DNA of 54,250 nucleotides, taken from the sequence record OM141125.2; one strand, written 5' to 3'. Positions 38,684 through 54,250 of the stretch are shown here, piece after piece. The number at the start of each line of letters is the position of its first letter. Position 1 is the stretch's first letter. The notes beneath the pieces are model-generated. The model was not told where the DNA came from and ran no database searches. It saw only the letters and a program-made list of their open reading frames with translations. Both the position numbers and the translations under genes were made by a program. Source of the DNA: Pseudomonas phage PP9W2.

Positions 38684-38725
38684 GAGTGATCCTCGCCGCG
38701 CATGCGCAGCCAGTGAAGGGAGGGG

Positions 38726-39172: not shown

Positions 39173-39774
39173 CACGGCGTCACCCGCTTGAACTCGACGA
39201 CCCAGACCCAGGGATTGGCGGTGAAAGCCTCTGGGCCGTTGATCTCTCCCCAAAGGGAGCGGAACCAGAGCCAAGCATCCAATCCACTACCGCCCGTTTC
39301 GCATTCGCGCTCGGCGGGATATCCCTCGGCCCGTGCCTGCTCCTCGCTGATGTCCTGCAGGCGCTCTACGCGAACGGCGGTGATCTCCAGTAGGATGCGG
39401 GAGGCCCAACGCGGCATATGGATAGAGGGGCGAACGCGGCCCTTAGAGATCATGGAGCATCCTGTCTGCCGAACGCTGAGGTCTGCCGGGTACCAGATCG
39501 GTTCACCTTGGCTGAGGTCGCACGGCGCGATTGCGTCTACCTGGGCATCTGCTGCCCAGGCCTCCCGCACCCACAGCCGATCGCCGGGCTCGCCGTAGGG
39601 GCAGGTGATGCGTGCGTGCAGGCCGGCATCAAGCGTCTTGAATGGCGTATTGGGATCGACCATTGAGCCGAGGAAGTCGGGCTGCGGCGACACCACTCGG
39701 CGGCTGACCGTCTTCCTACCTTCCAGGATGGCGCGGACCATCTGGTCGTTGAACAGGATCGGACGTTCTTTCAT
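39172..39774 (-). CDS. ASCH/PUA-like domain protein
   Basis: MKERPILFNDQMVRAILEGRKTVSRRVV...GDRLWVREAW. Confidence 0.45.
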   Translation of the reverse strand: MKERPILFNDQMVRAILEGRKTVSRRVVSPQPDFLGSMVDPNTPFKTLDAGLHARITCPYGEPGDRLWVREAWAADAQVDAIAPCDLSQGEPIWYPADLSVRQTGCSMISKGRVRPSIHMPRWASRILLEITAVRVERLQDISEEQARAEGYPAERECETGGSGLDAWLWFRSLWGEINGPEAFTANPWVWVVEFKRVTP

Positions 39775-39941
39775 TCTTCTTGCTCCTCAAGCTTTGTCAG
39801 CCGAGCCAGCATTTCACTGGTTAGCTGCGCATGGTCCTCTTGGCTAAGGACAGGCATGGGCACGAACAGAACGCCCGTATTTTTGAGCACCTGGGCGGCC
39901 TCTATGGCCTTGCGAAGTAAATCGACTGGTGCGCGCTTCAT
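39771..39941 (-). CDS. small hypothetical protein (56 aa)
   Basis: ATGA overlap with the next gene; GAGGTGG RBS. Confidence 0.3.
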   Translation of the reverse strand: MKRAPVDLLRKAIEAAQVLKNTGVLFVPMPVLSQEDHAQLTSEMLARLTKLEEQEE

Positions 39942-40051
39942 AGCCCCGCCACCTCAACAAACGCCACGGCGAACATGAACACGCTGCCCACAAAAAAGCC
40001 GCCGAAGATCAGGACTTGGGCGGCCTTGGTCAGGTCGATGGTGATGGTCAT
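39938..40051 (-). CDS. small TM peptide (37 aa)
   Basis: MTITIDLTKAAQVLIFGGFFVGSVFMFAVAFVEVAGL; AGGAG RBS. Confidence 0.25.
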   Translation of the reverse strand: MTITIDLTKAAQVLIFGGFFVGSVFMFAVAFVEVAGL

Positions 40052-40566
40052 GTGGATGACTCCTGGCGGCGGTAGCCGGCGTCGTATAGCGCGTAAAGCG
40101 TAGGGTACTGATATGGAACTCCTTGAATTGACATAGCCATATCACCGACTGCCTTCTCCCGCTCCTCGGCGGCGATCTGCTCGGGGGTGCGGATGGGGCG
40201 GAACAGCATGTCGCACGTGCGGTAGAGCTGTTCTTGTGCGTCGTCGTACGCAACTAGAGACTCTTCGCTGATGTACCGAATTTCACAGGGACGATACTCA
40301 GGCCAGATCATGTGTCTGTATTGGCACACCGTCCCAACCGGCGGCAGGCCCTGGCCGTCCCAGGCCTCTTGCGGTCTAGCCTCGAATGTCGCCTCACGCT
40401 CTGCGGATACAAAACAATCTGCCCACACTCCGGCCCACACTTCGCTTCCTTCGAGCCAATAGGACCATTCATTCCCGACCTTTTTCATCCAGCCTTCGCC
40501 GAATACTATCCCCCTCGGCTCCCAATGAGTCGCACCCTCCGGTGCCGTGTTCCAGTCAATGCTCAT
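40048..40566 (-). CDS. hypothetical protein
   Basis: Minus-strand ORF that overlaps both neighbours. Confidence 0.4.
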   Translation of the reverse strand: MSIDWNTAPEGATHWEPRGIVFGEGWMKKVGNEWSYWLEGSEVWAGVWADCFVSAEREATFEARPQEAWDGQGLPPVGTVCQYRHMIWPEYRPCEIRYISEESLVAYDDAQEQLYRTCDMLFRPIRTPEQIAAEEREKAVGDMAMSIQGVPYQYPTLYALYDAGYRRQESST

Positions 40567-40928
40567 GCTCGCCTCTCCCTAACCAGTCGTTCAGCGTTCT
40601 CGATAAGCGTGGATTCGAATGCGCGGAACCAGATGCGTTGTGCCAGTTCCAGATCGCCTCGGCGGACGGCTAGGAGTAGCTGAGTCATCGGGCACTCTTT
40701 GCTGTCGACCTCTGCGAGCCACTCAGGCACGAATCCGGCAAAGCCGTAGACCGTGAACTCCGGCCCGATAAAGGGCCTCTCTTTCCGGTCATGGAACGGC
40801 ACGCAATCACCGTCTTCACAGTTCAGAAGCTTCCCGACTTGCTCAGTGACATACTCTCGGTCGCCGTCATCGTCGGGCGGTAGCGCGTTGTCCCAGCGCT
40901 CCTGGGCGTATTTCAATGCGGTGTTCAT
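40563..40928 (-). CDS. hypothetical protein
   Basis: Minus-strand ORF that overlaps its neighbour. Confidence 0.4.
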   Translation of the reverse strand: MNTALKYAQERWDNALPPDDDGDREYVTEQVGKLLNCEDGDCVPFHDRKERPFIGPEFTVYGFAGFVPEWLAEVDSKECPMTQLLLAVRRGDLELAQRIWFRAFESTLIENAERLVRERRA

Positions 40929-41033
40929 GTCTCACCTCGCGTTCGCGTGCATGCGGCAGCGTCCTGTCTCGCTGTCGTCATACAGGCGAAAAAATGCCCG
41001 GACTTGCCGGGCTAAGAGGGGTACTTGTCGGTG

Positions 41034-41225
41034 TCATTCGCTTTCAACGTATGCGCCGAAGTCAATGTGATTACCGAGAAAGTCTTGAGCTAACTCTTCT
41101 AGATATTCATCTTTCCCTTCTTCTGAAAGAGAGTCCCAATACCCTTTGTCTATCTCGATAGAGTCTTCGTGTTTGCATCCAGCAAATCCGGTATCCACAT
41201 ACATTTTGATCTTGATAAGTTCCAT
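41034..41225 (-). CDS. small highly acidic protein (63 aa)
   Basis: 17 Asp/Glu against 5 Lys; about 42% GC island. Confidence 0.45.
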   Translation of the reverse strand: MELIKIKMYVDTGFAGCKHEDSIEIDKGYWDSLSEEGKDEYLEELAQDFLGNHIDFGAYVESE

Positions 41226-41425
41226 TTCTCATTACCTGTTCTTGTGTGCCAGGGTAGGGTGGGGATGCCGGAGCTGATCTCCGGCATGCTGGTGGTGACA
41301 TCATGTGTTCCGTTTCATGCCACGCATCGATTCGTGTACGCGGTTCACAGCGGCAGTCTGGCCAGCAACCATTTACAGTTATGACGTTCGTCTCATGGCG
41401 GCAAAACCATGATTCTCGTCGCGCA

Positions 41426-41677
41426 TCAGCCTGCGCATTCAGACCACTCTCCGATACAGCCATAAGGCTGGTGTTCGTTGACTTCTTCGATGCCCCTCTT
41501 GCGAAGGGCATCTGAGAAATCGGGGTGTTTCTTTTTGCACAGGCCAACGGTCGCTTTCCCGTTGATGCGATTCGGCGCGACAAGGGATCGAGGTCCCACG
41601 GCCAAACGCCAATCAACATCACGCAGCCTCTCCAGCCACGCCCTCCGAATGAGGTCTCCTGTGCCCAGCGCCGACAT
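41426..41677 (-). CDS. hypothetical early protein in N-like position (Arg-rich N-terminus)
   Basis: First ORF downstream of the putative PL; IRRAWLERLRD. Confidence 0.3.
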   Translation of the reverse strand: MSALGTGDLIRRAWLERLRDVDWRLAVGPRSLVAPNRINGKATVGLCKKKHPDFSDALRKRGIEEVNEHQPYGCIGEWSECAG

Positions 41678-41812
41678 ATGGTCGAATCGCTGCCTACCGT
41701 TGCGCGGTAGGTCCGCTGGCTATGCATCGGCCAGCTCGGCGTCCATCTGGTTGTTAAAGAGCGGTCGGCTCGGTGGCCTCGCGCTGCGGTGTTCTGCGGC
41801 GTTGAGGTGAGT

Positions 41813-41852
41813 ATGAGATTGCTCATATTCATTGTCAATGAGTTTCCCCATA
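41813..41852 (-). promoter_or_regulatory. OL/PL: two operator sites plus TTGACA -35
   Basis: TATGAGattgCTCATA and AATGAGtttcCCCATA with centres 24 bp apart. TTGACA on the minus strand lies between them. Confidence 0.4.
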
Positions 41853-41867
41853 TTTTTTCTTGAGGCC

Positions 41868-41895
41868 ATGAAAAAGCCCGCGCTAGGCGGGCTTA
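41868..41895 (-). terminator. rho-independent terminator of cI operon
   Basis: On the minus strand: gccataagcccgcctagcgcgggcTTTTTCAT. Confidence 0.5.
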
Positions 41896-41913
41896 TGGCT
41901 CCTTTGGAAGGTT

Positions 41914-42183
41914 CTAGCTGCGGCGTCTTAGGGTGAATCCCCTAGCGGCCATGCCAAACAGGCAGAAAATGGCGCCTACCGCTGCTTTGGCCAGAAGGAT
42001 AGTAGTAGGGTGCTGCTCCCAGGCAGGGATACTGCCTGAAAAGGCAAGCGTGATAGCGACATATACACACGCAGAGATCAGTACCGAGATTCTGCTCTTG
42101 ATGAAGAACCCGATAGCCGCGCACAGGAAGAACACCAATGGGTCCAGAAGGGAAGCTGCTAGGCAAGCGACAAACACAACCAA
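41914..42183 (-). CDS. 3-TM membrane protein co-transcribed with cI (rexB-like position)
   Basis: TTG start with AGGAG RBS 10 nt after the cI stop; about 52% GC; followed by a terminator. Confidence 0.5.
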   Translation of the reverse strand: MVVFVACLAASLLDPLVFFLCAAIGFFIKSRISVLISACVYVAITLAFSGSIPAWEQHPTTILLAKAAVGAIFCLFGMAARGFTLRRRS

Positions 42184-42192
42184 AGCGATCTC

Positions 42193-42864
42193 CTATCCAA
42201 TGCCGCCACCGCGCCATATGACGCGACCTATGATTGGAAGCTCATGAACTGAGCTTTCACTAGCCATCTCATCCGGATAAGCGGACTTGTCTGGATTGTC
42301 GCTACGGATTAGCCACGCTCCTGTTAACTGCTGGTTAAGGCGCTTGATGCTAACGCCGCCATCCGGCCTCCGGATAACATAGACCTGCTTGTCCTGTGGG
42401 TCTGTCTTGGAGGTGTCGAAGAGGACCACATCTCCCTCGAATATGTAAGGCTCCATGCTGTCGCCATCAGCATAGATTACAAAGAGGTTCTCCGGCTTTG
42501 AGTTGACACGCTTCAGCCAGTCGCGCTTGAAGACAAGCCCTTCGGTGGTCTCAACGTGATCATTGAAATACCCATCGCCGCATTCGCCGCGAGCAGTGTA
42601 TTGAGGTATCAGGGCGTAGTCCTTTTCGCTTGGGGCTCCTGGTAAAGCCTCTTCATTGTTGTTCATGTTGCCACGCCCAGCGGCAAGCCATAACGCGCTT
42701 ACCCCGCAAGCAGCAGCTAGCTGAGCAATATACGCCGATCCCTGAGATTTTCCTTTCTCAAGGTTGGAAATAGATGTTTGGTCCAGGCCGACTCGCTGAG
42801 CCAGTTGAGCCTGAGTGAGATTGGCGTGCTTGCGCGCGGCCTTGATGCGGTCTTTGAGTTCCAT
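42193..42864 (-). CDS. cI: CI-like repressor (HTH_XRE plus S24 LexA-like peptidase)
   Basis: [24 protein letters not shown]; Ala-Gly cleavage site and Ser...Lys catalytic dyad (DGDSMEP...VSIKRL); leaderless start downstream of a GATAAT -10. Confidence 0.85.
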
Positions 42865-42875
42865 CCGAAAATTAT

Positions 42876-42939
42876 CATGGGCGTTCCCATGTCCTTGCAA
42901 ATGAGTATTCCCCTGCTGTACCGTATGAGTATTCCCATA
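42876..42939 (+). promoter_or_regulatory. OR: three operator sites at 24-bp spacing, PRM/PR
   Basis: CATGGGcgttCCCATG, AATGAGtattCCCCTG and TATGAGtattCCCATA; consensus ATGRG-N4-CYCAT. Confidence 0.5.
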
Positions 42940-42951
42940 AGGAGGGAAGCT

Positions 42952-43173
42952 ATGACCACCATCTACAAAGAGCTCGTCGCCTATTTTGGGACTCAAGACG
43001 AGACCGCCGCGAAGCTCGGCGTTGACCAAAGCACTGTGTCTGGATGGGTCCGGGGAAAGCACGGGATGTCTCCTATTGTTGCGAAGCGGGCTCAGGTTTT
43101 GACCGACGGGAAATTCAAGAAAGAGGACCTGTGTCCGGCTTTCCCGTGGGAAATGCTGTCGGCGGTTGCCTGA
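42952..43173 (+). CDS. cro: Cro-like HTH protein
   Basis: GGAGGGAAG RBS; [23 protein letters not shown]; divergent from cI. Confidence 0.65.
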
Positions 43174-43174
43174 C

Positions 43175-43483
43175 ATGACAGCCAGTCAATTAAACCCCGA
43201 GCAGGAAGCAAGGGCACGCAAGAACTACAGCCTCATCGTGCAGCGACTTGCATCGGTTGGAAATGCGCCGGTTGCGCATGCAGTCGGTTGCGATGAGTCG
43301 ACGATCAGCCGAATGAAGCCGGAGAAGTTCCTTGAGTTCGCCCGGATCTTGGCCGTGCTGGACCTGAAGGTCGTCGGCAACGAGATGAAGTGCTTCAACG
43401 AGAAGGAGATCGCCGCGATCTTGCACCTGGCGAAATCGAAGCTCTCTGAGGTCGAGAGCGTCGAGCAACTGGAGTGGGATTGA
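43175..43483 (+). CDS. cII: CII-like transcriptional activator
   Basis: [37 protein letters not shown] resembles the lambda CII core. Confidence 0.55.
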
Positions 43484-43674
43484 TGCGCGAACGACTCACG
43501 AACTCTGACTATGCCGCAATGGCTGACGCTGCTGGAGAGCTTGCGGAGATGGGTTCGAGCGAGTGGAGGCGCAGATACAACAAAGCCCTGCGCGATTACT
43601 ACAGGGCTTTGTCGGTGCGTGGATCGGTGGCAGCCGAATCACGCTTGGGGAAACACAACACACAGGAAGCATAA
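43483..43674 (+). CDS. hypothetical protein
   Basis: ATGA-coupled to cII. Confidence 0.35.
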   Translation: MRERLTNSDYAAMADAAGELAEMGSSEWRRRYNKALRDYYRALSVRGSVAAESRLGKHNTQEA

Positions 43675-43677
43675 CCC

Positions 43678-44268
43678 ATGAGTTACGGGTTTATCTACTG
43701 CCTGGGCAATCAGGCTATGCCGGGGATCTACAAGATCGGCATGACAGAACGGGCTCCGACTCAGCGCTGTATTGAGCTTTCAAATGCTACGGCGGCGCCT
43801 CTTCCTTTCGACCTTCTGTTTTACGGCGAGGTGGAAGACCCGCGTGAAGTGGAACGCAAGATCCACGAACAGTTCGATCTCGAACGGCTCTCCTGTGGTC
43901 GCGAATTCTTCCGCGGCCGCGCCCTGACCTACAAGCTGGCAATTGAAGAGTGGTGCAGCTCGATAGCTGTTACCAGCGACGGCGATTATTACCTGTCCGT
44001 AGAAGATTTGTTGGATCAGCTGGAGGCATGCGCGGATGACGAAGGGCGCGTCGAGGTCTTCATGCGCTACGCCTCCTTGGATGGAATTCGCATGTGGGCC
44101 GAGGGTGGAAACGTGCGATTCAGCGTGCCAAATCTCGACATGATCCCGCGCTGGATTCTGGCGGCATCGTCTATCTGCAAAGGAGTGCTTTTGCAGCATC
44201 TGCCGACTGAACACCCGATCAAGTCCAGCCGCGCTCTTTCCCTGATTGCCGCGGAGGATAGCTGGTGA
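43678..44268 (+). CDS. T5orf172 (GIY-YIG-like, MUG113) domain protein
   Basis: YGFIYCLGNQAMPGIYKIGMTERAPTQRCIEL. Confidence 0.55.
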   Translation: MSYGFIYCLGNQAMPGIYKIGMTERAPTQRCIELSNATAAPLPFDLLFYGEVEDPREVERKIHEQFDLERLSCGREFFRGRALTYKLAIEEWCSSIAVTSDGDYYLSVEDLLDQLEACADDEGRVEVFMRYASLDGIRMWAEGGNVRFSVPNLDMIPRWILAASSICKGVLLQHLPTEHPIKSSRALSLIAAEDSW

Positions 44269-44975
44269 GCACGATAATCATGACTCAGTGCTGGCCGCTT
44301 CAGGGAATGAGCGCCCCACAGAAAGCCGTTCTTATCTCGTTGGCTGACAACTCGAACGATGACGGCGTTTGCTGGCCGTCCGTTGCCAAGATTGCAGAGC
44401 GTACCTGCCTGTCAGAGCGCGCTGTGCGCAACGCGCTTCGCTGGCTGGAGGATGCAAAGATACTGATCAGTCACCAGCGCAATGGCCGATCCACTTGGTA
44501 CACCGTTACCCCGGCATCTTATGCCCCCGGCACGACATGCCCCCCGGCACCAGATGCCGCCCCACCCCGGCACGACGTGCCGCCCACCCCGGCACCTGGT
44601 GCCCCCAGAACCGTAATAGAACCATCAAGTGAACCGTCAGTAGAGACAACCGCTGCTGCCGAAGATGCGAAATCCAAGAAGACTGCCTGCCCGGTAAAGG
44701 CGATTGTCGACCTGTTCAACGAAGTGCTTCCAGAGCTGCCGACCGTGGTCTTGATCAACAAAGATCGGAAGTCGAAGGTGCAGGCTCGCTGGAATGACAG
44801 CGAAGTCCATCAGGACCTTGGCTTCTGGAGAGATTACTTCGAGACCGTTCGCGCCAGTGATTTCCTGATGGGGAGGGTGACGGGTCGCGACGGGAAAGTG
44901 TTTCGCTGCTGCTTCGACTGGCTGATTGCTCCCTCCAACTTCGTCAAGGTTGTGGAGGGCAATTACCATGCGTGA
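44265..44975 (+). CDS. replication initiator (lambda O-like, N-terminal wHTH)
   Basis: LSAPQKAVLISLADNSNDDGVCWPSVAKIAERTCLSERAVRNALRWLE; iterons lie inside the gene. Confidence 0.6.
   Translation: MSTIIMTQCWPLQGMSAPQKAVLISLADNSNDDGVCWPSVAKIAERTCLSERAVRNALRWLEDAKILISHQRNGRSTWYTVTPASYAPGTTCPPAPDAAPPRHDVPPTPAPGAPRTVIEPSSEPSVETTAAAEDAKSKKTACPVKAIVDLFNEVLPELPTVVLINKDRKSKVQARWNDSEVHQDLGFWRDYFETVRASDFLMGRVTGRDGKVFRCCFDWLIAPSNFVKVVEGNYHA
44515..44593 (+). repeat. origin iterons (4 direct repeats of about 19 bp, each an imperfect palindrome GGCACNNNGTGCC)
   Basis: cccccggcacgacatgcc / cccccggcaccagatgcc / accccggcacgacgtgcc / accccggcacctggtgcc, followed by an AT-richer tract. Confidence 0.55.
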
Positions 44976-46353
44976 TCCCTACAGCCTCGAAGCCGAGCAT
45001 GGGGTTCTTGGCGCGATGATGCAGCGTCCGGAGCTAATCGACGTTCTTGCCGATGAGCTGACCCCGGAGTCGTTCTATTTCGCAGACAACGCTGAGGTTT
45101 TCCGGGCGATCATGGCGGTACGCTCTGCCAACAAGGCGGTCGACTTCCTGACCGTAGCTGAGCAGCTTGGAGCGCTTCCTAGCGAGACCCCGGCACTGGC
45201 TTACTGCTGCGAGATCGTGAAGAACACTCCGAGTATTGCTAGCGCCTCGACCTATGCCCGTATCGTCCGTGAGCGCGCTGTTGATCGGGCACTGCATATC
45301 GCTGCCCAGGACATTTCCGAGATTGCCAGTTCGAGCCAGGAGACCGCTGAAAAGGTCTCTGCTGCTCATGCCGCAATCATGGCAGTGGATGCTGGCGAAA
45401 CTAGCGTTGACGTTCAGAAGGCTTCAGATGTCCTGGCAACCCAGGTTGAGGTCTGGCAGCAGCGCCACGACCGCTATCGGAGCGGACAAACCCTGATGGG
45501 TATTTCTTCTGGGCTGACTGATCTCGACGCCAAGATCGGCGGGTTCCTGCCGGGCCAACTGATTGTCGTCGCTGGCCGACCAGCGATGGGCAAGACAACC
45601 TTCGCAATGTCCTGCTCGATCCATGCGGCGCTCAAGGAGCGGAAGTCAGTGCTGGCGCTTAGCCTTGAGATGAGCAATGGGCAGCTCATTGACCGCGCCG
45701 TTGCTTCAGTCGGAAAGATTCCGCTGAACATGATCCGAAACGGTACCGCATGCGAGGAGTACGGTGCCGAGCTGGGTGCCGCATCGCGGACTATCAGCAT
45801 GTCCAGCCTGTACCTCGCGGACAAGCCAGCCCTGAATACGATCGGCCGAGTTCGCGCCATGGCGCGCCGTCACAAGATGCGCTATGGACTCGACATGCTG
45901 ATGGTCGACTACCTGCAACTCATGGACGGGGAGGGGGAGAACCGCGTCAACGTCATCAGCTCAATCAGCCGCGGCTTCAAGCTCCTGGCAAACGAACTTG
46001 GCGTTCCTGTGATTCTCCTAAGCCAGCTTTCCCGAAAGTGTGAGGAGCGCCCTAACAAGCGCCCGATCCAGTCCGACCTCCGCGAATCCGGCGCCATTGA
46101 GCAGGACGCAGACATCATCCTCTTCGTCTACCGGGACGAGGTCTACAACGAGCATACCGAGTTCAAAGGGGTGGCCGAGATCATCGTCGCAAAGGGGCGC
46201 GACGTTGAAACGGGGACGGTACGTGCTGCGTTCTTGGGTCAGTACAACCGCTTTGAAAACCTATCCGCTGAATGGCGGCCTGCTGAGGCCGATAGGCCGC
46301 AGAAAGTAACTCGGCTGTCTGACCGCTATGGCAGCAAAGGAGCGGGCCAATGA
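44968..46353 (+). CDS. dnaB: replicative DNA helicase DnaB
   Basis: Walker A GRPAMGKT; DnaB N- and C-terminal domains; GGAGGG RBS. Confidence 0.9.
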   Translation: MRDPYSLEAEHGVLGAMMQRPELIDVLADELTPESFYFADNAEVFRAIMAVRSANKAVDFLTVAEQLGALPSETPALAYCCEIVKNTPSIASASTYARIVRERAVDRALHIAAQDISEIASSSQETAEKVSAAHAAIMAVDAGETSVDVQKASDVLATQVEVWQQRHDRYRSGQTLMGISSGLTDLDAKIGGFLPGQLIVVAGRPAMGKTTFAMSCSIHAALKERKSVLALSLEMSNGQLIDRAVASVGKIPLNMIRNGTACEEYGAELGAASRTISMSSLYLADKPALNTIGRVRAMARRHKMRYGLDMLMVDYLQLMDGEGENRVNVISSISRGFKLLANELGVPVILLSQLSRKCEERPNKRPIQSDLRESGAIEQDADIILFVYRDEVYNEHTEFKGVAEIIVAKGRDVETGTVRAAFLGQYNRFENLSAEWRPAEADRPQKVTRLSDRYGSKGAGQ

Positions 46354-47117
46354 AAGAGCAACGCTACAGAGACCCGAAGGCCGTACACGCCTGGAACAAC
46401 GGAGAGGGCGGCAGGGCTGCCCGTAAGCGCTACGCGGAGCGTAACAAGGAAGCTATAAGGGCTCGCCTGGCTGCCCGCCTGAGTCGCAGCAACTCCGTCT
46501 CCAAGGCGCAGCTGATCGAAGAGGTCGCCCGGCTCCTTTCTTACGATGGCGAAACCGGCGAGCTTCGCTACTGCGATGCACCGCGGGAGATGTTCTCGAC
46601 TCAATCGGCGTGGAAGCGCCACTCGACCTTCCTTGTCGGGAAGCCAGCAGGAAGCGTTCTGGAGAGCGGCGTGTGCCGCTATCTGAAAATCCAATACCAG
46701 CGTAAGCACCTTCAGGCACACCACGTGGCGTGGTTCATTTCCACTGGCCAGCACGTCCAGGATGGTTGGTTCATTGACCATATCAACGGCGATGGCCTGG
46801 ATAACCGCATATGCAACCTGCGCCTGGTCTCCAGGCAGGAAAACATGCGGAACAAGCGGCTCTATCGGAACAAAACCATCAGGATATTTGGTGTTCTGCC
46901 AATTCGAGGGCAGCGCCTTCGTTACGAAGTGCGTATCGGTGGCGAAGCAGGTCAGGAGCGAGTCGGTATCTTCGATGACTTCTTCGAAGCCTGCTGTGCG
47001 CGAAAGTCGGCAGAAGTCCGTCATGGCTACCACGCCAACCACGGACGCCTGATGGAAGACTGCGACCCGCTCGCGGTCGTGAAGAGCATTTGGCCGGAAG
47101 GGAGAGTTGAACAGTGA
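46350..47117 (+). CDS. HNH endonuclease (HNH_3 plus AP2-like)
   Basis: HHVAWFISTG...IDHINGDGLDNRICNLRLVSRQENMRN. Confidence 0.7.
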   Translation: MKEQRYRDPKAVHAWNNGEGGRAARKRYAERNKEAIRARLAARLSRSNSVSKAQLIEEVARLLSYDGETGELRYCDAPREMFSTQSAWKRHSTFLVGKPAGSVLESGVCRYLKIQYQRKHLQAHHVAWFISTGQHVQDGWFIDHINGDGLDNRICNLRLVSRQENMRNKRLYRNKTIRIFGVLPIRGQRLRYEVRIGGEAGQERVGIFDDFFEACCARKSAEVRHGYHANHGRLMEDCDPLAVVKSIWPEGRVEQ

Positions 47118-47623
47118 CTCCCGCAAAACAGGAATCCCTCATGCAGGGCCAGACCGGAATCGCGAAGAAGGTCTACGAGTGCGTACCGATCTCTGAGCCC
47201 TGGCGTTCGTTCCAGGTGCTCACCGCACTTCGCAACATGACCGGAAGCACGCCGGACGTTCGGATTGTCCAGGGCTGCCTGCGCGATCTAGTCGATTCCG
47301 GACTGATCCGCCGCACTGGTACTGACCACTGCCAACGAATCCAAGTCGAGAAAAAGACCAAGCCTCAGGAGCCGAAGATGGCGGAGCCCGCGAAGAAGAT
47401 CGAAACCCAGTCCGAGCCGAAGCGCTCCGCCTCCCCGCTGGAGATGCTGGGCGAACTGGCAACCGAAATCGTCGACCTAGCCGAACACCTGAAGCGCCTG
47501 GCGGCCCGAGTCGAGGACGCTGCCCTGGCCGTTGAGCAGGAGCGCGAATCGAACGCGAAGTCGATGGAAAGCTATCGCCAGCTCAAGGCGCTACTGAAGA
47601 GCCTGCAAGGGGAGGGTGAGTGA
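47114..47623 (+). CDS. hypothetical protein
   Basis: Coiled-coil C-terminal half. Confidence 0.4.
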   Translation: MTPAKQESLMQGQTGIAKKVYECVPISEPWRSFQVLTALRNMTGSTPDVRIVQGCLRDLVDSGLIRRTGTDHCQRIQVEKKTKPQEPKMAEPAKKIETQSEPKRSASPLEMLGELATEIVDLAEHLKRLAARVEDAALAVEQERESNAKSMESYRQLKALLKSLQGEGE

Positions 47624-47624
47624 C

Positions 47625-47825
47625 ATGGACATTATCGACATCGCCAACGACTACGCCGAGCGTGAACTCGCTGAACGCCTGTACTCCCGAGTCAAGTACG
47701 TCGGCGAGAGCCTGGACGAATGTGAAGACTGCGGCGAGGAGATCCCGGTAGCGCGGCGCTCGATCATCCCTGGTGTTCGTAAATGCCGGGACTGCGCTGA
47801 ACTGGCTGAGCGGAGGGCTGTGTAA
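47625..47825 (+). CDS. TraR/DksA-family C4 zinc-finger protein
   Basis: CEDCGEEIP...CRDC. Confidence 0.55.
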   Translation: MDIIDIANDYAERELAERLYSRVKYVGESLDECEDCGEEIPVARRSIIPGVRKCRDCAELAERRAV

Positions 47826-48022
47826 TGAGAGAGAAAACGCACTATTGCTCGTTCTGCGGAGAGTCCGAGCACGAGCTCAAGGCTCTCATCAAAGGCCCAT
47901 CGGCGCTTATCTGCGATGCGTGCGTCGCGCTGTGCGTGGACCTGCTCGAGGACAAGGGGCACTGGCCGCCAGCTGCTTGCAGTTCTGAGGTTCCCGGCGC
48001 CAAGCCGGAGGAGGTCGAGTGA
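47825..48022 (+). CDS. ClpX N-terminal zinc-binding-domain homologue (stand-alone)
   Basis: YCSFCGESEHELKALIKGPSALICDACVALCVDLLED compared with E. coli ClpX [36 protein letters not shown]. Confidence 0.65.
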   Translation: MREKTHYCSFCGESEHELKALIKGPSALICDACVALCVDLLEDKGHWPPAACSSEVPGAKPEEVE

Positions 48023-48258
48023 TGCCGAACTATCGCAAGCCGGACATGTACTCGGACGCCGATTGGGAAATGGTTCAGGGCTACATGGCCGGCAAGGACG
48101 GCCTGCGCGCCCAGCGCTCGAATGCCGCCTACATGCATGGCTATCGCAACGGGGTTTCTGATCGGATTGGAATCCCGCATGAGCGGGCAGAGGTTCTTCG
48201 CCGTCGCGCAGAGATGATCCCTGGCATCACACCGAGGGAGGAAATTCTCCATGGCTGA
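48019..48258 (+). CDS. hypothetical protein
   Basis: ATGA-coupled to its neighbour. Confidence 0.35.
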   Translation: MMPNYRKPDMYSDADWEMVQGYMAGKDGLRAQRSNAAYMHGYRNGVSDRIGIPHERAEVLRRRAEMIPGITPREEILHG

Positions 48259-48667
48259 CCGCACCTTTCGCATTCAAGGCGCCGCTGGCATCCGTCCGGC
48301 TTTCGTTGCGGCCTGGAACCTTATCCAGGGGCTCATGCGTGACGCTCAGGGCGGCTACGAACTGGTCCTTCGCCCCCTCAAGTCGAAGCGCTCCATCGAG
48401 CAGAACAAGCGGTACTGGTCCCTTCTACGCGAGCTTGCATCGGTCGCCTGGGTCGACAACCGACAGTTCGACGATCAGGTCTGGCACGAGCAGTTCAAGC
48501 GCTGGTTCATCGGTTGCGAGGACGTGAAATTGCCTGACGGCTCTACCGAACTGCGTGGAATCAGTACGACGAAGCTGAGCGTCGACGAGTTCGGCATTTA
48601 CATGACCAAGATCGAAGCATGGGCCGCGGAGCAAGGGTGGCCGCTGATGATTCAGGAGGCCGCATGA
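48251..48667 (+). CDS. ninB: NinB-like recombination protein
   Basis: KRSIEQNKRYWSLLRELA... NinB family pattern. Confidence 0.55.
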   Translation: MADRTFRIQGAAGIRPAFVAAWNLIQGLMRDAQGGYELVLRPLKSKRSIEQNKRYWSLLRELASVAWVDNRQFDDQVWHEQFKRWFIGCEDVKLPDGSTELRGISTTKLSVDEFGIYMTKIEAWAAEQGWPLMIQEAA

Positions 48668-49350
48668 GCGTCATCAAGCGCTTCGAGCGCAATCAGGCCG
48701 GCCGAGACTTTGCAGTCGGTGACATCCACGGCCATTTCACACTTTTGCAGAAGGCTCTCGATGCTGCGTGCTTCGATCCGGCCGTTGACCGCCTATTCAG
48801 CGTCGGCGACCTGATTGACCGTGGCCCTGAGTGCGAGGACGTTGAGGCGTGGCTGGCCAAGCCATGGTTCCACCCAGTGCGCGGCAATCACGATGACTAC
48901 GTATGCCGGTACGACACCTGCGAGATCGGAAACTGGATGCGCAATGGAGGTTCGTGGTTCGTCGGCCTCCCGGAAGTCCAGCAGCAGTGCCTGGCCATAT
49001 CCTTCCGCGAACTCCCGATCGGTATCGAGATCGACACCCAGAACGGCCTCGTCGGACTGGTCCACGCTGACTGCGTCTTCGACTCGTGGGATGAGCTGAA
49101 ACGCGAACTCGACTGTGCGAGCAACCAGCGCCGCAAGTTGGTGATGAATACCTGCATGTGGTCGCGCACTCGCATCGAGCAGCACGACGAACGCCCCGTG
49201 CACGGTCTCCGTGCCCTGGTGGTGGGCCATAACCCGCTGTGCCGCCCGGTTGTGCTCGGCAACGTCTACCACATCGACACGATGGGATGGCGGCCACAAG
49301 ACGGCGGGTACTTCACGCTGCTTAACCTCGAAACTCTGGAGGCCGCATGA
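48664..49350 (+). CDS. Ser/Thr phosphoprotein phosphatase (lambda PPase-like metallophosphoesterase)
   Basis: GDIHGHF, GDLIDRGP and GNHD motifs. Confidence 0.8.
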   Translation: MSVIKRFERNQAGRDFAVGDIHGHFTLLQKALDAACFDPAVDRLFSVGDLIDRGPECEDVEAWLAKPWFHPVRGNHDDYVCRYDTCEIGNWMRNGGSWFVGLPEVQQQCLAISFRELPIGIEIDTQNGLVGLVHADCVFDSWDELKRELDCASNQRRKLVMNTCMWSRTRIEQHDERPVHGLRALVVGHNPLCRPVVLGNVYHIDTMGWRPQDGGYFTLLNLETLEAA

Positions 49351-49616
49351 GCAAGTTCAAGGCGGGTGACCTAGCGCTCGTAATCAACCACACCTTCCCT
49401 CCGGTTATCGGGACCTGCGTCGAACTGATCAGCCGCCATTTGGTTGGGCCGGTTGATCGTAGCGATCCGATGGACCCAGGAGTTTATGAAACCCCTGACG
49501 GCGAGCCGGTGTGGGTAGTGGACGATCAAGGCGCCATCGTTTGGGAGAAGTGGCTCATGCCGCTTCGGGGAGACTTCCAGCCCGAGCAGCAGAAGGCGAA
49601 GGAGGTGGAGGTATGA
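49347..49616 (+). CDS. hypothetical protein
   Basis: ATGA-coupled to its neighbour. Confidence 0.35.
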   Translation: MSKFKAGDLALVINHTFPPVIGTCVELISRHLVGPVDRSDPMDPGVYETPDGEPVWVVDDQGAIVWEKWLMPLRGDFQPEQQKAKEVEV

Positions 49617-49978
49617 GCTACTGCCGTTGGAGCAGCGATGATTTCCAATGCGATGTTTACGTATACGAAAGCGTAGCCGGTGGATTCGTCACTCACGTTG
49701 CCGCCAATAGGGTGGTTTTCAAGGATGAACTGCCTGCCCTGGTTCCTTTCGAGCCGGAGTACGTTGACCAGTTCTTGGCGCGCCACAACCAGGTAATGGC
49801 AATGGTTGATGCGGCTGATCGTGTGCTGATCGGTCTTCCACACGACGGCGACAGCTTCGATGACGCCGATCAAGAGGCCTGTGCGGACCGACTGGAGTAT
49901 CTGAAGGGGCTGGGCTACGTCGTCCCGCAGTACGCCATTGACGCGCTGCGCGAGGAAGCAGAGGAGGGCGAAGCATGA
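49613..49978 (+). CDS. hypothetical acidic protein
   Basis: GGAGGTGGAGG RBS. Confidence 0.4.
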   Translation: MSYCRWSSDDFQCDVYVYESVAGGFVTHVAANRVVFKDELPALVPFEPEYVDQFLARHNQVMAMVDAADRVLIGLPHDGDSFDDADQEACADRLEYLKGLGYVVPQYAIDALREEAEEGEA

Positions 49979-50616
49979 CGCTTTCCGTCCGCAGTTCGAA
50001 GCCCAGGAAGTGCAAGAACCCAGCCTGCGGCAAAGAGTTCATCCCGCAGCGCCTTGGCCAGTGCGTGTGCTCTCCTGCCTGCGCCCTGGCCATCAAGGAC
50101 AAGCACTCAAAGCCGGCGCGGAAGGCAATCGCAGACCGCGAGCGGCGGGAGATCAAGGTTCGGAAGGAGAGGCTGAAGACGCACAGCGACCACATCAAAG
50201 ATGCAGAGAAAGCCGTTCGGGACTACCGGCGCACCTACGAACTGTCCATCGGAAGCGGCTGCATAAGCTGCGGCAAGTCTCAGGCCGAGGTACTAGCCGA
50301 ACAAGGCTGGAAGACTGGAGGTGCATTCGACGCAGGGCATTTTCTCGGCAAGGGGGCAAGGCCCGAGCACCGCCTGGAGCCATCCAACATATGGCTTCAA
50401 TGCAAGGCCTGTAACGCCGGCTCCAGCAAGTACGCCAGGAAGGGGCTTACCGTTTCCCAGGGCTTCCGTGAGGGCTTGATCGAACGCATCGGCCTGGAAG
50501 CTGTAGAGGCTCTGGAAGCCGATCACCGTCCCCGCAAGTACACCAACGACGAACTGAAGGCGATCACCGCCGAGTACCGCGCCAAGCTGCGCGAGCTGAA
50601 GAGGGCTACGGCATGA
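49975..50616 (+). CDS. ninG: NinG/Rap-like protein
   Basis: Cys-rich (CKNPACG...CVCSPAC, CISCG, CKACN); NinG-like size and position. Confidence 0.6.
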
Positions 50617-51299
50617 ATCTAAACAGCGCGCGCATTGCCTGGCACGATGCGTTCTATACCCCTTGGAACAGCGGCATGGCCGAGGCGGCGGAGCGAGCTG
50701 CTCTTGGAATTGTCGAGGCTGGCGGATATGTCCGTCGACGCATCACCGAGATCGACGATGAAGGGGAGGCTGTCTCCTACAGCCAATACACCTTTGTGCC
50801 AGGAATCCACCAGACCAAGACTGAGCGCGACATCAGCACTCCTCGGGCTGTTCATCAGGCACTCGCCGGCGTGATTCAAAAGGCGATCGATACCCTCCCG
50901 GCGCATCTGAAGGTGTTCGGCAATCACATGTACAGCCCTATGGCTGGCGAAGACGACAAGGAGGCTGCGGAAGAGATCGTGTTCAGGGTCGCTTACGAAA
51001 CCGGCCCAAGGATGTACACGAAGAAATTCGAGAAGGCGCGCTATGTCGCTGCGGGAGTCTTGTTCCGGTACCGTCGCATGCACCAGGGCGGCCAGAGCGA
51101 AGGCGTTGATCCCTGCCCAAGCCCTGAGTCGTTCCGCGCCTGGCTTGACCGTATGCATGGCATTGAACTTGACCCAAGAAACTGGGATAGGGAATGGGAC
51201 GGCTTTATCCAGGCCTGTTTCGATGCCTGCAACGATCTCGACAAGGCCGCGCTTGTGCCTGTCTCTTCGGCGATAAAAATGATGAAAAATGCTGCTTGA
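50613..51299 (+). CDS. putative late-gene antiterminator (Q-like position)
   Basis: Last ORF of the nin region, upstream of the terminator, tRNAs and holins. Confidence 0.4.
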   Translation: MNLNSARIAWHDAFYTPWNSGMAEAAERAALGIVEAGGYVRRRITEIDDEGEAVSYSQYTFVPGIHQTKTERDISTPRAVHQALAGVIQKAIDTLPAHLKVFGNHMYSPMAGEDDKEAAEEIVFRVAYETGPRMYTKKFEKARYVAAGVLFRYRRMHQGGQSEGVDPCPSPESFRAWLDRMHGIELDPRNWDREWDGFIQACFDACNDLDKAALVPVSSAIKMMKNAA

Positions 51300-51370
51300 C
51301 GACAAATGTGCGGCTGAGGCACACTTATCTCCATCGTGACAAATTCGCCTCTGGCGAAAGTCACCACCGA

Positions 51371-51400
51371 AGCCCTGGCATCTGCCGGGGCTTTTTCGTT
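51371..51400 (+). terminator. rho-independent terminator (tR-prime-like)
   Basis: 10-bp stem agccctggca/tgccggggct followed by TTTTTCGTTTCC. Confidence 0.5.
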
Positions 51401-51423
51401 TCCAGCCGTCTACGGAGTTCTGC

Positions 51424-51522
51424 AATGTCTGCTGAATCGAAAGATGTTTGGCTGCTCAAGGGTATCGGCGGTGGCGCGCTGGTCCTGCTGCTCCTGGTTG
51501 GAGCGGTAGTAGTACTGATCTG
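51424..51522 (+). CDS. small hydrophobic peptide (32 aa)
   Basis: MSAESKDVWLLKGIGGGALVLLLLVGAVVVLI; GGAG RBS. Confidence 0.3.
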
Positions 51523-51762
51523 AATCCTTCTGGGTTGCGACTACGCGGCCGAGGATGGTCAAAGGTGGGACCCGGCCCTACCGCGACCTAATACTCCGGG
51601 ATCGCCTTGGACACGCAGGCGTTAAAGTGAAGTGGGAGCCGGTGGAGGCCCGGCATTCACGCATGCGGCAGAAGAAAGCAAGGGTCACCACTGGTGATCA
51701 AGGCGAAAGCCCCGGCTACTTGCTCTGCGGGCGTGACGCCGGGTTCGCCCGGCACCTATTCC

Positions 51763-51838
<76 letters not shown>

Positions 51839-51850
51839 AACTCGATTCAA

Positions 51851-51925
51851 TGACGTGTAGCTCAGAGGTAGAGCGGTCGGCTGTTACCCGATTGGTCGAT
51901 GGTTCGATCCCATCCGCGTCAGCCA
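51851..51925 (+). tRNA. tRNA-Asn (anticodon GUU), CCA encoded
   Basis: Acceptor TGACGTG/CGCGTCA, anticodon loop CTGTTAC, T-arm GATGG TTCGATC CCATC. Confidence 0.55.
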
Positions 51926-51929
51926 ATAA

Positions 51930-52005
51930 GCCGGTATGGCGCAACAGGGAGCGCTGCTGATTTGTAATCAGAGGGTTGCGGGTTCGACTCCTGCTGCCGG
52001 CACCA
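51930..52005 (+). tRNA. tRNA-Thr (anticodon UGU), CCA encoded; weaker anticodon stem
   Basis: Acceptor GCCGGTA/TGCCGGC, anticodon loop TTTGTAA, T-arm GCGGG TTCGACT CCTGC. Confidence 0.45.
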
Positions 52006-52059
52006 CACTACAAGGCCCAGGCAATGACCTGGGCTTTTCTGCATCTGGAGTACGTGAAT

Positions 52060-52428
52060 ATGGCCGAGCCGAGTGGTGCGGTAGCAGTCGCCGGCTTGGT
52101 CGGTATTGGTGCGTCTGCGTTGATCCCTGGCATTGATGCCAATGCAGTGATCGGTGCTTTTGCTGGGGCGATCTTCTTCGTGGTGTACGCCAAGGACATT
52201 TCGGCCTGGGCGCGCCTCGGTTACTTCGTCGTGTCCTGGATCGTTGGCTACTACGTCGCCGGCGAAGTCATCGGGCGAGAATGGGCCAGAACATCGGGCC
52301 TGGTCGCGTGTGGCGGGGCATTGTTCTGCGTCGCAGTGGGCACCAGCTTGCTGGAGTGGGTGCAGGGGGGGAAGACGCCTGGTTGGCTCCGCTTCATTGC
52401 GGACCGCTTTGGAGGTCGTAATGGTTGA
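52060..52428 (+). CDS. holin (multi-TM)
   Basis: Three or four hydrophobic helices; first ORF after the tRNAs in the late operon. Confidence 0.5.
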   Translation: MAEPSGAVAVAGLVGIGASALIPGIDANAVIGAFAGAIFFVVYAKDISAWARLGYFVVSWIVGYYVAGEVIGREWARTSGLVACGGALFCVAVGTSLLEWVQGGKTPGWLRFIADRFGGRNG

Positions 52429-52705
52429 CCCTTGGACTCTGGTGGCTGCGATGATCTGCGGCGCCATCTGCATGAGGCTGGCGACATACCGCCGGCAGGG
52501 CGCGAGGTATCGCCGGGGAGTTTCCTGGCTCGCCTACCTGCTGTGCGTTGGTAGTGGGTGCTTCGCCCTGAGCGTGATGCTCGATGCACTCCACGGCTAC
52601 AGACTGAATCCTGTCTCCCCTTGGCTGACCCTGGTGCTGGCGATCCTGCTCGGCCTTGTCTGCCGCGCGCGGGGGAACCTGGCCCACATTCTGAGGGTGT
52701 ACTGA
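52421..52705 (+). CDS. 3-TM membrane protein (second holin/antiholin?)
   Basis: GGAGG RBS; overlaps the holin stop. Confidence 0.4.
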   Translation: MVDPWTLVAAMICGAICMRLATYRRQGARYRRGVSWLAYLLCVGSGCFALSVMLDALHGYRLNPVSPWLTLVLAILLGLVCRARGNLAHILRVY

Positions 52706-52938
52706 TGGATGCTCCGCTTCTACTGAAGAACACTGGCACATCCCTGATTCTGTGTGACAGCAACGGGAAGCCGCTCCCTGGCCAGCTTTCGCTGACGGTC
52801 AGCAACGACGGCCCTGTTCCAACCGTCACGGTCACGTTCGCACTCGTTAACAAGCGGGTGAGGCTCTGCGGCGAAGAGATGGAGTCGCGCATCTCATACG
52901 ATGCGTATCTTGAGGCAATTAAGGGAAGGCGCAGCTGA
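52705..52938 (+). CDS. hypothetical protein
   Basis: ATGA-coupled to its neighbour. Confidence 0.35.
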   Translation: MDAPLLLKNTGTSLILCDSNGKPLPGQLSLTVSNDGPVPTVTVTFALVNKRVRLCGEEMESRISYDAYLEAIKGRRS

Positions 52939-53055
52939 TGACCAAGTGCACCTTCTGCAACAAGACGCGTGAATGGGCGAAGAAGTGGGCTCGGGTCGCG
53001 ATGGAACGCGCGGCCTCTGCTATGGCCGCCAAGCCGAAGCGACCCGGAGCAAGCG

Positions 53056-53274
53056 ATGACTGAGTCCGAGGAAGAGGTTCGACTTCTCCTGCGCGATCTC
53101 CTCGATGAGCAGCGCAAGACCAATCAGCTATTGCACCTTCTGATCCAGGCTCTGGCCGAAGATGGCGAGGATCCTGACGCCGTGCCGACCAGCTATCTGG
53201 ATGGAACACCGATCCAAGGGCATCAGCCGGTACGCAGTAATAGCCTTTTGGCAACGCCGCCAGGGGAACGATGA
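53056..53274 (+). CDS. hypothetical acidic protein
   Basis: GGAGCAAGCG RBS. Confidence 0.3.
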   Translation: MTESEEEVRLLLRDLLDEQRKTNQLLHLLIQALAEDGEDPDAVPTSYLDGTPIQGHQPVRSNSLLATPPGER

Positions 53275-53525
53275 TGTCGACGTTTATGGGCTCCGCTAGG
53301 GAAACCCAGATAGCTGCTGTTCGAGTCCGTCGCGGATGGTTCGGCAAGCTGGTTGTCCAGGTTCGCTACAAGATAGAGCGCCCCGAAAGCCCACTCCCTG
53401 GCCGGGAGCTGATCTACCACGTATGCGGGCTCTCCCCATGGCGAGACGCTAACGCAAATGATCTCGCAGAGTCCCTGCTGGTCGCGAAGCTCATCGGTAT
53501 GTCTGATGAAGGAAAGCCCACATGA
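53271..53525 (+). CDS. hypothetical protein
   Basis: Coupled to its neighbours. Confidence 0.35.
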   Translation: MMSTFMGSARETQIAAVRVRRGWFGKLVVQVRYKIERPESPLPGRELIYHVCGLSPWRDANANDLAESLLVAKLIGMSDEGKPT

Positions 53526-53767
53526 AGAGCCGTCCAATTCCTGCTGGTGTCGAGATCAACCCCGGTCGTGCCTGGACCCCTGATGACGTAACCGGATACA
53601 GCGAAGAAGTAGAGAGCGCGATAAAGGTTCTGGAACCACTGCTTCGATCTGGCCTCCTGGCTCTCCGTCCTGATGAATGGCAGGGTGGCAAGTTCTCATT
53701 CCTCAGGCCAGCACAAGGCAGGCTTCAAGGTTGGACTCCGCCGAATCGGGAGCGCCTCAATGCCTGA
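53522..53767 (+). CDS. hypothetical protein
   Basis: Coupled to its neighbours. Confidence 0.35.
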   Translation: MKSRPIPAGVEINPGRAWTPDDVTGYSEEVESAIKVLEPLLRSGLLALRPDEWQGGKFSFLRPAQGRLQGWTPPNRERLNA

Positions 53768-54074
53768 CCTCCCTCAGCGTCACACCAAGCCAAAGGCCAA
53801 GGGAGTGACCAAGCACGAGGTAGAGGGCAAAGCATGGGGGAATGGGCGTGGTGGCAGGCCGTGGCGCCGCAAGCGTGAGCGCATCCTCAAGCGGGATGGC
53901 TACATGTGCCAGTGTGCAGAGTGCAAGGGAGTGAAGAGGATCGCCACAGAGGTGGACCACATCATCCCGCTGAGCCAAGGCGGCGCTGATGATGACTCGA
54001 ACCTGATGGCTATTGCTGGATACCCCTGCCATGCGAGGAAGACGGCAAGGGAGTCGGCGGCATCTAGGAAATAG
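53760..54074 (+). CDS. HNH endonuclease (packaging-associated)
   Basis: CQCAECKG...EVDHIIPLSQGG...N...C HNH; immediately upstream of the expected cos/terS. Confidence 0.7.
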   Translation: MPDLPQRHTKPKAKGVTKHEVEGKAWGNGRGGRPWRRKRERILKRDGYMCQCAECKGVKRIATEVDHIIPLSQGGADDDSNLMAIAGYPCHARKTARESAASRK

Positions 54075-54173
54075 TCGGGTTCCATCAGCGAGCGGACACG
54101 ACGATTCGAGATATTCACGAATAATGGCAGTGGTTTTCACTGGACTCGTGCGGCTTGACAGAAAAATCTAGTT

Positions 54174-54210
54174 AAATGAGAAAAAGTCTCATTTATAGGG
54201 GTGGGGCGGG
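54174..54210 (+). promoter_or_regulatory. palindrome plus G-rich tract in expected cos region
   Basis: AAATGAGAaaaagTCTCATTT followed by GGGGTGGGGCGGG, between HNH and the presumed next terS. Confidence 0.25.
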
Positions 54211-54250
54211 TCAAAACATTAGAACCTTTCGCTAGGACACCGCGCCCCCA

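Follow-up and report, generated by a model that had tools for sequence, protein, structure and literature searches.

A stand-alone ClpX-type zinc-binding domain protein encoded by a D3-like Pseudomonas phage: a selected single-gene cassette and a possible competitor for ClpX docking partners

The window analysed here, the whole 54,250-nucleotide stretch of Pseudomonas phage PP9W2 (sequence record OM141125.2), contains a small gene whose 65-aa product (7.0 kDa, isoelectric point (pI) 4.9, net charge -6) carries, according to sequence matches and a structural model, a ClpX-type C4 zinc-binding domain (ZBD), with zinc binding predicted. An earlier note, made from the letters of the sequence, had recognised this domain in the open reading frame (ORF), and our searches bore it out. 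Residues 7–42 matched the Pfam family PF06689 (zf-C4_ClpX) at 54.2 bits (E = 1.3e-14, profile positions 2–38 of 39), the gathering cutoff of this family being 27 bits. A phmmer search of all PDB sequences aligned residues 4–43 with the solved ZBD of Escherichia coli ClpX (2ds5/1ovx) at an E value of about 1e-12; above noise this search returned ClpX chains only, with scores declining from gamma-proteobacterial to Neisseria to Listeria ClpX. The core is identical to the E. coli ClpX ZBD at 23 of 40 positions (57%), and likewise at 23/40 to the 426-aa ClpX of PDB entry 9ndj. The CxxC-x18-CxxC spacing of the cysteines matches that of ClpX and the four cysteines are invariant in all homologues. 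The description of the resemblance as 'almost motif for motif' was overstated, since 15 near-invariant positions differ and several of the changes are shared across the phage family.

The predicted fold agreed with this assignment. A model built with AlphaFold2 (AF2) on an alignment of 60 diverse sequences placed strands at residues 21–23 and 28–30 and a helix at residues 31–43, with predicted local distance difference test (pLDDT) values of 73–90 over the core; a first run on five near-identical sequences (pLDDT 58) was discarded. When this predicted model was used as the query, the top Foldseek matches were the ClpX ZBD structures, determined by crystallography or NMR, 2ds5, 2ds8, 2ds6, 2ds7 and 1ovx, with root-mean-square deviations of 1.0–1.5 Å over 35–41 residues, 56–63% identity and target-normalised template modelling (TM) scores of 0.75–0.82, and nothing significant was found besides them. 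The AAA+ body is missing, as the earlier note had also stated. The NCBIfam ClpX equivalogs NF003745 and TIGR00382 matched at model positions 3–48 only, with 41.9 bits (cutoff 359) and 38.1 bits (cutoff 370.75), the ORF ends after 65 codons, and the next ORF downstream showed no AAA+ similarity. Scans of the protein with Pfam, NCBIfam and PADLOC detected no other family, and PADLOC gave no defence-system match for the protein or its three neighbours. The residues following the core form a tail that is predicted to be disordered, the pLDDT dropping to about 45 over residues 51–65. Within this tail G45-H46-W47 and C52 are common to both D3-like alleles of the protein and to its homologue in phage EM. 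An H-x5-C spacing was also noticed there (H46-W47/C52, 47960..47980, plus strand), which reads GHWPPAAC, GHWPPVPC and GHWQVDTC in the D3-like alleles and EM; going by the sequence, it might represent a partial extra metal site, perhaps dimer-bridging, or a docking motif.

The ORF is a real gene under purifying selection, and not a chance ORF in high-GC DNA. Two alleles are in circulation, whose proteins are about 97% and about 80% identical to that of the window. Between the alleles the synonymous divergence (dS) was about 0.45–0.55, and the ratio of nonsynonymous to synonymous divergence (dN/dS) was 0.24 in the annotated frame versus about 2 in the other two frames; the differences at codon positions 1, 2 and 3 numbered 5, 6 and 20. 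For codons 1–45, the core, dN/dS was 0.12–0.13, and for the tail it was 0.70–0.76. The 65-codon frame was intact in 22/22 IMG/VR loci carrying the gene and also in about eight isolated phages. The overlapping antisense and alternative-frame ORFs had no Pfam match, and an Rfam scan found nothing.

The sequence family as such is already present in databases, as the NCBI 'ClpX C4-type zinc finger protein' and as the PHROGs family phrog_12435, which the window protein matched over its full length (E = 4e-47, 159 bits, residues 1–65 on profile positions 1–65 of 65). The family also bears the labels 'protease' (phrog_12435 and GenBank) and 'ATP-dependent Clp protease ATP-binding subunit'. These are misnomers because the AAA+ module is absent, and such wrong labels, together with the 'carboxylate-amine ligase' given to related proteins described below, hide the family from view. 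In our literature searches we found no publication that deals with a stand-alone protein of the ClpX-type ZBD.

Megablast searches with 47100..48700 and 30000..54250 gave matches only to D3-like (Detrevirus-type) temperate phages of Pseudomonas aeruginosa, at 85–97% identity, and by its sequence the window is a mosaic phage of this kind. The ZBD gene is part of a packed run of genes on the same strand, which comprises, in order, a T5orf172-domain gene, an HTH_36 replication initiator, a DnaB-like helicase, an HNH endonuclease, phrog_4405, a TraR/DksA zinc finger, the ZBD gene, phrog_12505, NinB, a metallophosphatase, NinG and three tRNAs (Table 1). Its counterpart in a lambdoid phage is the early rightward operon together with the nin-like region. 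The ATG of the ZBD gene (47825) overlaps the TAA (47823..47825) of the TraR-like gene, an arrangement that indicates likely translational coupling, and the ATG of the downstream gene (48022) overlaps the TGA of the ZBD gene. The C-terminal EEVE was considered as a functional motif and rejected. Its nucleotides hold the Shine-Dalgarno sequence of the downstream gene, and this embedded site, together with the overlapping start codon, explains the conservation better. In a scan of 46300..49400 no sigma-70-like promoter was found, and the two terminator-like matches were at chance level; because no promoter-like site lies nearby and the terminator-like matches do not exceed chance, the ZBD gene probably shares a transcript and translational coupling with the genes around it in the early rightward operon. 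That it is expressed early we infer from its position.

Two of the neighbours deserve a separate description. At the site of the HNH_3 endonuclease gene most relatives have only an ORF of about 40 aa that matches its C-terminal end, and the full gene was found only in one other locus (L028, 98%), so that it looks like an inserted free-standing gene of the homing-endonuclease type. The phrog_12505 family was seen only in P. aeruginosa phages, and its protein had no PDB or NCBIfam match. This protein contains repeated GY..G motifs and resembles ribosome modulation factor, though below the threshold (PF04957, E = 0.0015, 19 bits versus a cutoff of 27.9).

Table 1. Positions of the ZBD gene, its parts and other features in the window
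Feature	Position	Strand	Basis or remark
Gene for the stand-alone ClpX-type ZBD protein	47825..48022	+	ATG..TGA, 65 codons and stop; ORF list
Shine-Dalgarno GGAGG of the ZBD gene	47812..47816	+	8 nt 5' of the ATG; read from the sequence
ZBD core, residues 4–43 (predicted treble-clef zinc finger: beta-hairpin and C-terminal helix)	47834..47953	+	phmmer against PDB, AF2, Foldseek
First zinc knuckle (predicted), C8-S-F-C11	47846..47857	+	ClpX C14/C17; sequence and alignment
Second zinc knuckle (predicted), C30-D-A-C33	47912..47923	+	ClpX C36/C39; sequence and alignment
C-terminal tail, residues 44–65	47954..48019	+	predicted disordered; close to neutral evolution
Shine-Dalgarno GGAGGAGG of the downstream gene	48007..48014	+	within the E62-E63 codons; sequence, junction alignment
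TraR/DksA-family C4 zinc-finger gene, upstream	47616..47825	+	Pfam PF01258; TIGR02419 at 64.8 bits
phrog_12505 gene, 78 aa, downstream	48022..48258	+	PHROG match
T5orf172/MUG113-domain gene	43678..44268	+	PF10544, E = 1e-12; directly 5' of the replication initiator gene
HNH_3 endonuclease gene, full-length, 255 aa	46350..47117	+	PF13392; flanked by the helicase gene and phrog_4405
Three tRNA genes (Gly-TCC, Asn-GTT, Thr-TGT)	51763..52005	+	clustered downstream of the nin-like region
Protein ending in -AA	34031..34309	-	rough gene calling
Protein ending in -AA	36865..37611	-	rough gene calling
Protein ending in -AA	48251..48667	+	rough gene calling
Protein ending in -AA	48619..49350	+	rough gene calling
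Protein ending in -AA	50613..51299	+	rough gene calling

The immediate surroundings of the ZBD gene are constant among its D3-like carriers. In 25/25 D3-like loci the TraR-like gene precedes it and phrog_12505 follows it, and in 24/25 phrog_4405 is found upstream. Further away the order changes: the replication module upstream belongs to at least three or four unrelated types, with DnaB/initiator identity classes of 98–100%, 46%, 35% and none detected, and the downstream nin genes vary too. The TraR-like gene adjoins the ZBD gene in all D3-like carriers, yet it also occurs in relatives that do not have the ZBD gene. In D3 it is followed by orf78 and others, in YMC11/02/R656 by NinB, and in vB_PaeS-D14C and Haboob directly by phrog_12505. 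A nucleotide alignment showed that D14C and Haboob are missing exactly the 198-bp gene, between the look-alike junctions GGAGGGCTGTGTGATG and GGAGGAGGTCGAGTGATG. On either side of the gene the junction is a near-repeat of the other and consists of a Shine-Dalgarno sequence, a short spacer and an overlapping stop/start TGATG or TAATG (47770..48070 compared with loci L043 and L044, 1146..1250), and the gene has been lost or gained with single-base precision. Because exactly 198 bp are absent between look-alike junctions, the ZBD gene is a self-contained one-gene cassette that is exchanged at gene boundaries, and the junctions offer a clear example of how recombination at such boundaries shuffles single genes in phage early operons.

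A homologue of 59 aa with 62% identity was found in the lytic Pakpunavirus EM, where it stands among entirely different genes and phrog_12505 does not occur. An obligate partnership with phrog_12505 was therefore rejected, since D14C and Haboob have phrog_12505 without the ZBD gene and EM has the reverse. The earlier note had also linked the ZBD gene to the neighbouring replication genes and to the protection of an O-like protein. This part found no support: the HNH, phrog_4405 and TraR genes intervene, the replication modules of the carriers differ, the DnaB/initiator being varied or undetectable and EM having none, and close relatives without the ZBD gene keep the same surroundings. A link to replication genes was rejected on these grounds, and the distribution of the ZBD gene gives no support to the protection of an O-like protein. 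When one genome per bacterial species was scanned, the only relative recovered was a distant one in a Kofleriaceae metagenome-assembled genome, and the phrog_12435 family is thus essentially confined to P. aeruginosa phages. The gene has no fixed phage partner, and the host P. aeruginosa is the only element common to all carriers. With the host as the sole constant factor, the best reading of the protein would be that of a ClpX N-domain paralogue competing for the adaptors and substrates that dock on the ZBD.

ClpX-type zinc fingers without the rest of ClpX were also found elsewhere. The Escherichia phages P88 (L006 2324..2656) and D6 (L007 1809..2129) encode proteins of about 106–110 aa in which an N-terminal region of about 60 aa precedes a C-terminal ZBD. 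These ZBDs are identical to E. coli ClpX at 29–30/40 positions and to the Pseudomonas phage protein at only 17–18/40, and in GenBank the proteins are annotated as hypothetical or, mistakenly, as 'carboxylate-amine ligase'. Caulobacter phage Cr30 has a small ZBD protein as well. The pattern of identities is star-like, which suggests that phages may have captured the ClpX ZBD several times independently. A HMMER search recovered 8,592 clusters at E <= 1e-3, ClpX itself included, and the best 150 of these 8,592 matches were mostly proteins of 90–650 aa with 2–6 tandem ZBDs. One of the bacterial proteins, P0165, which contains two ZBDs, is a genuine separate gene located away from clp operons. The short metagenomic ZBD proteins were considered as a large stand-alone family; they proved to be mostly truncated or frameshifted clpX, with tig, clpP and lon fragmented too, and were excluded from the counts. 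In a Beijerinckiaceae bacterium a 125-aa ORF with two ZBDs (L035 5001..5378, also L036 and L037) occurred in the order tig-clpP-ZBDx2-clpX-lon in three assemblies. It was set aside as weak guilt-by-association evidence, being a near-copy of the 5' end of the adjacent clpX and probably a recent tandem duplication. Among the 416 ZBD units that we extracted from all retrieved proteins, the closest to the Pseudomonas phage protein outside its own family were ClpX ZBDs of beta- and gamma-proteobacteria (25–26/40), which favours a probable descent from a proteobacterial clpX.

What is known of the ClpX domain gives these observations a possible functional meaning. In Staphylococcus aureus ClpX is reportedly required for completing prophage induction (PMC10584840). 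Adaptors and some substrates dock on the ZBD of ClpX, and deletion of this domain abolishes the degradation of lambda O and the RssB-dependent degradation of sigma-S but not the degradation of ssrA-tagged proteins (PMC7226468; PMC7804408). The hydrophobic region used by the SspB tail peptide overlaps with that used by RssB, lambda O and trigger factor and contains F16 and I46 (PMC7804408). The isolated ZBD dimerises, as seen by cross-linking, and when the E. coli ZBD is supplied in trans in isolated form, RssB-mediated breakdown of sigma-S by ClpXP is inhibited in vitro (PMC7226468). Phage inhibitors of Lon or ClpP-family proteolysis are represented by PinA, gp4.5 and RexB (PMC10286901). At least one abortive-infection system is triggered by ClpP-dependent degradation of an antitoxin, and its authors predict phage-encoded ClpP inhibitors (bioRxiv 2024.02.24.581662).

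Tentatively, then, we regard it as possible that the small ZBD protein is a diverged paralogue of the ClpX ZBD, made from the early operon, that acts in trans on the partners docking on the ZBD of host ClpX. That the protein acts on ClpXP as a decoy or retargeting factor, as the earlier note had proposed, is plausible by analogy with the isolated domain. Of the mechanisms that could underlie it, competition in trans would be the most economical, and we propose it because F10, L40 and the hydrophobic core are kept and because the free E. coli ZBD inhibits in trans. In the hydrophobic pocket ClpX F16 corresponds to an identical F10 and I46 to a conservatively replaced L40, with neighbouring surface residues differing; Y7, L21, I22, I29, V34, L36, L40 and L41 retain the hydrophobic positions of core and helix. 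The early rightward operon would produce the ZBD protein during lytic growth, and the protein would form a ZBD-like dimer. The free dimer would occupy partners that dock on the ClpX ZBD, whether these are N-domain-dependent substrates or adaptor tails like those of SspB and RssB. As a result, ZBD-dependent degradation would be lowered while ZBD-independent degradation of the ssrA type would stay intact. The phage would gain in that a protein, its own or the host's, which ClpXP would normally degrade is stabilised; candidates are an antitoxin or some other unstable factor whose disappearance sets off abortive infection, or a lysis-lysogeny regulator.

Several observations weigh against this proposal. 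F16 is kept in 403/416 ZBD units of every kind, and because nearly every unit keeps it, its retention is weak evidence for the use of the pocket. Fifteen positions that are at least 90% invariant in the sampled ClpX ZBDs differ in the phage protein, an invariance somewhat inflated by a narrow sample of ClpX N-termini that is mostly Burkholderiales-like. In ClpX numbering these changes are L12H, K19E, Q21E, V24L, K26A, A29K, V33A, Y/F34L, E38A, I40V, N44V, I46L, I47L, R48E and E50K; D41A, at a less conserved position, is also different. Seven of the substitutions (K19E, Q21E, V24L, K26A, Y/F34L, D41A and N44V, which are E13, E15, L18, A20, L28, A35 and V38 of the phage protein) are common to both D3-like alleles and to EM. 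The double acidic change at K19 and Q21 occurs in 9/416 units, of which seven are from the phrog_12435 family. The net charge of the core is -4 versus -1 for ClpX, and an Ala/Val stripe runs along the helix. The family is not a faithful mimic, and such a pattern points to a surface that was selected for something other than the usual ligands of ClpX. Since the family has a conserved surface of its own, its target would not simply be every partner of the ClpX ZBD. A further difficulty comes from the ends of other phage proteins. Five of 68 roughly called proteins of the window end in -AA (HTAA, DRAA, QEAA, LEAA and KNAA), where about 0.95 would be expected from the frequency of alanine; all five are encoded in early, non-structural regions, and three of their genes follow the ZBD gene at a distance of no more than 3.3 kb. 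With such ends, which resemble an ssrA-type degron, several early proteins may be ClpXP-labile, but degrons of the ssrA type do not need the ZBD, and a pure decoy would therefore not protect them. Finally, the literature searches gave no binding or activity data for the protein or any homologue.

The same surface can be read in another way, namely that the ClpX-type finger is a small stable dimeric scaffold put to a use unrelated to ClpXP, such as the binding of another host protein or of nucleic acid. ZBD units are common outside ClpX, with P0165 away from any clp operon, and the family-specific surface, including the K19E/Q21E pair that is found in so few of the units, argues for a specificity of its own. 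We nevertheless consider a scaffold of this kind unlikely: no positive evidence points to another target, the Pfam, NCBIfam and PADLOC scans gave no other matches, 57% identity to the ClpX ZBD remains with the pocket positions conserved, and an acidic protein of pI 4.9 would hardly bind nucleic acid.

Alternatively, the protein could bind ClpX itself, by forming an N-domain heterodimer or by docking on the AAA+ ring, and so poison the bivalent tethering of adaptors, or serve as a minimal adaptor or an anti-adaptor whose tail recruits or blocks something. In ClpX the ZBD mediates dimerisation (PMC7226468), and the hydrophobic positions of core and helix are retained, although the changes on the helix face (E38A, D41A, N44V, I46L, I47L and R48E) may alter the specificity of pairing. 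As for the tail, the conservation of G45-H46-W47/C52 between the D3-like alleles and EM in an otherwise drifting segment speaks for this reading, as does the adaptor-like layout of the P88 and D6 proteins, in which a ZBD is joined to an N-terminal domain of about 60 aa; the prediction of disorder and a dN/dS of about 0.7 speak against it. The ClpX ZBD dimer is described as very stable, so that exchange into pre-existing ClpX would be slow within one infection cycle. Taken together, direct binding to ClpX appears quite unlikely to us. That the gene is a functionless, decaying fragment of a captured clpX or an assembly artefact, as many short metagenomic ZBD 'proteins' are truncated or frameshifted clpX and one tandem-ZBD ORF is an apparent recent duplication, is very improbable and effectively refuted by the selection analysis, with a core dN/dS of 0.12 at a dS of about 0.5, the intact frame in 22/22 viral contigs and about eight phages, its own Shine-Dalgarno sequence and coupled start and stop, a 62% homologue maintained in an unrelated phage, and no AAA+ remnant following it.

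Competition in trans for the docking partners of ClpX, the reading that we prefer, could be extended to other phages. In this view phages (the Pseudomonas D3-like phages and EM, Escherichia P88 and D6, and Caulobacter Cr30) have repeatedly captured the ClpX docking domain as a free 'domain decoy' which rewires the access of adaptors and substrates, the Pseudomonas version having a more acidic, client-specific surface; this wider view we regard as doubtful. ClpXP sets the fate of many regulators, among them sigma-S, antitoxins, repressor fragments and replication proteins, and a free docking platform made by a virus would, if real, be a simple way of reprogramming host proteolysis. It would be the first protease inhibitor that works as a copy of the module by which the enzyme itself recognises substrates, and it might help the phage to counter toxin-antitoxin or abortive-infection systems triggered through ClpXP; should the decoy idea prove correct, it would add a new form of phage-encoded protease modulation. 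The protein would also offer a compact tool for the selective shut-off of adaptor-dependent ClpXP degradation in P. aeruginosa, and it could be an anti-defence factor in the genomes of therapeutic phages. As otherwise similar phages differ by having or lacking exactly this gene, natural isogenic pairs are already at hand for comparison.

Compared with the ZBD of E. coli ClpX, the phage protein has the same predicted fold, a C4 site of identical spacing and the hydrophobic core in common, and at the pocket positions it has an identical F10 and a conservatively replaced L40. It differs in being free-standing, with a 22-residue acidic tail, predicted to be disordered, in place of the linker to the AAA+ ring, in the charge reversals K19E and R48E, and in the loss of K26, E38 and D41. 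The phage families phrog_6797 (P88 and D6), phrog_5259 and phrog_20296 and the Cr30 protein are likewise ClpX-type fingers without an AAA+ body that are encoded in early or accessory regions; those of P88 and D6, unlike the Pseudomonas protein, have the extra N-terminal domain of about 60 aa and a ZBD that is much more ClpX-like. Bacterial multi-ZBD proteins (P0007 with four ZBDs, P0165 with two, and P0156, located between clpP and clpX) also consist of PF06689 units without AAA+. They are, however, chromosomal tandem arrays, whereas the phage protein is a single unit with an acidic signature that was found in only two of their units.

In its proposed outcome, a small early protein damping a host AAA+ protease and so sheltering labile proteins, the phage ZBD protein would resemble PinA of T4 and gp4.5 of T7, which act on Lon, and RexB of lambda, which acts on the ClpP-family proteolysis of lambda O and antitoxins. 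None of these families was among the Pfam, PHROG or NCBIfam matches of the ZBD protein, and any resemblance would be one of function. Mimicry of the protease's own docking domain, as proposed for the phage ZBD protein, is not known to have been described for any of the three. The anti-adaptors IraD, IraM and IraP and the competition of SspB with RssB likewise control ClpXP through access to docking on the ZBD and not through catalysis (PMC7226468). The Ira proteins bind the adaptor RssB by unrelated folds, whereas the phage protein would imitate the docking platform itself.

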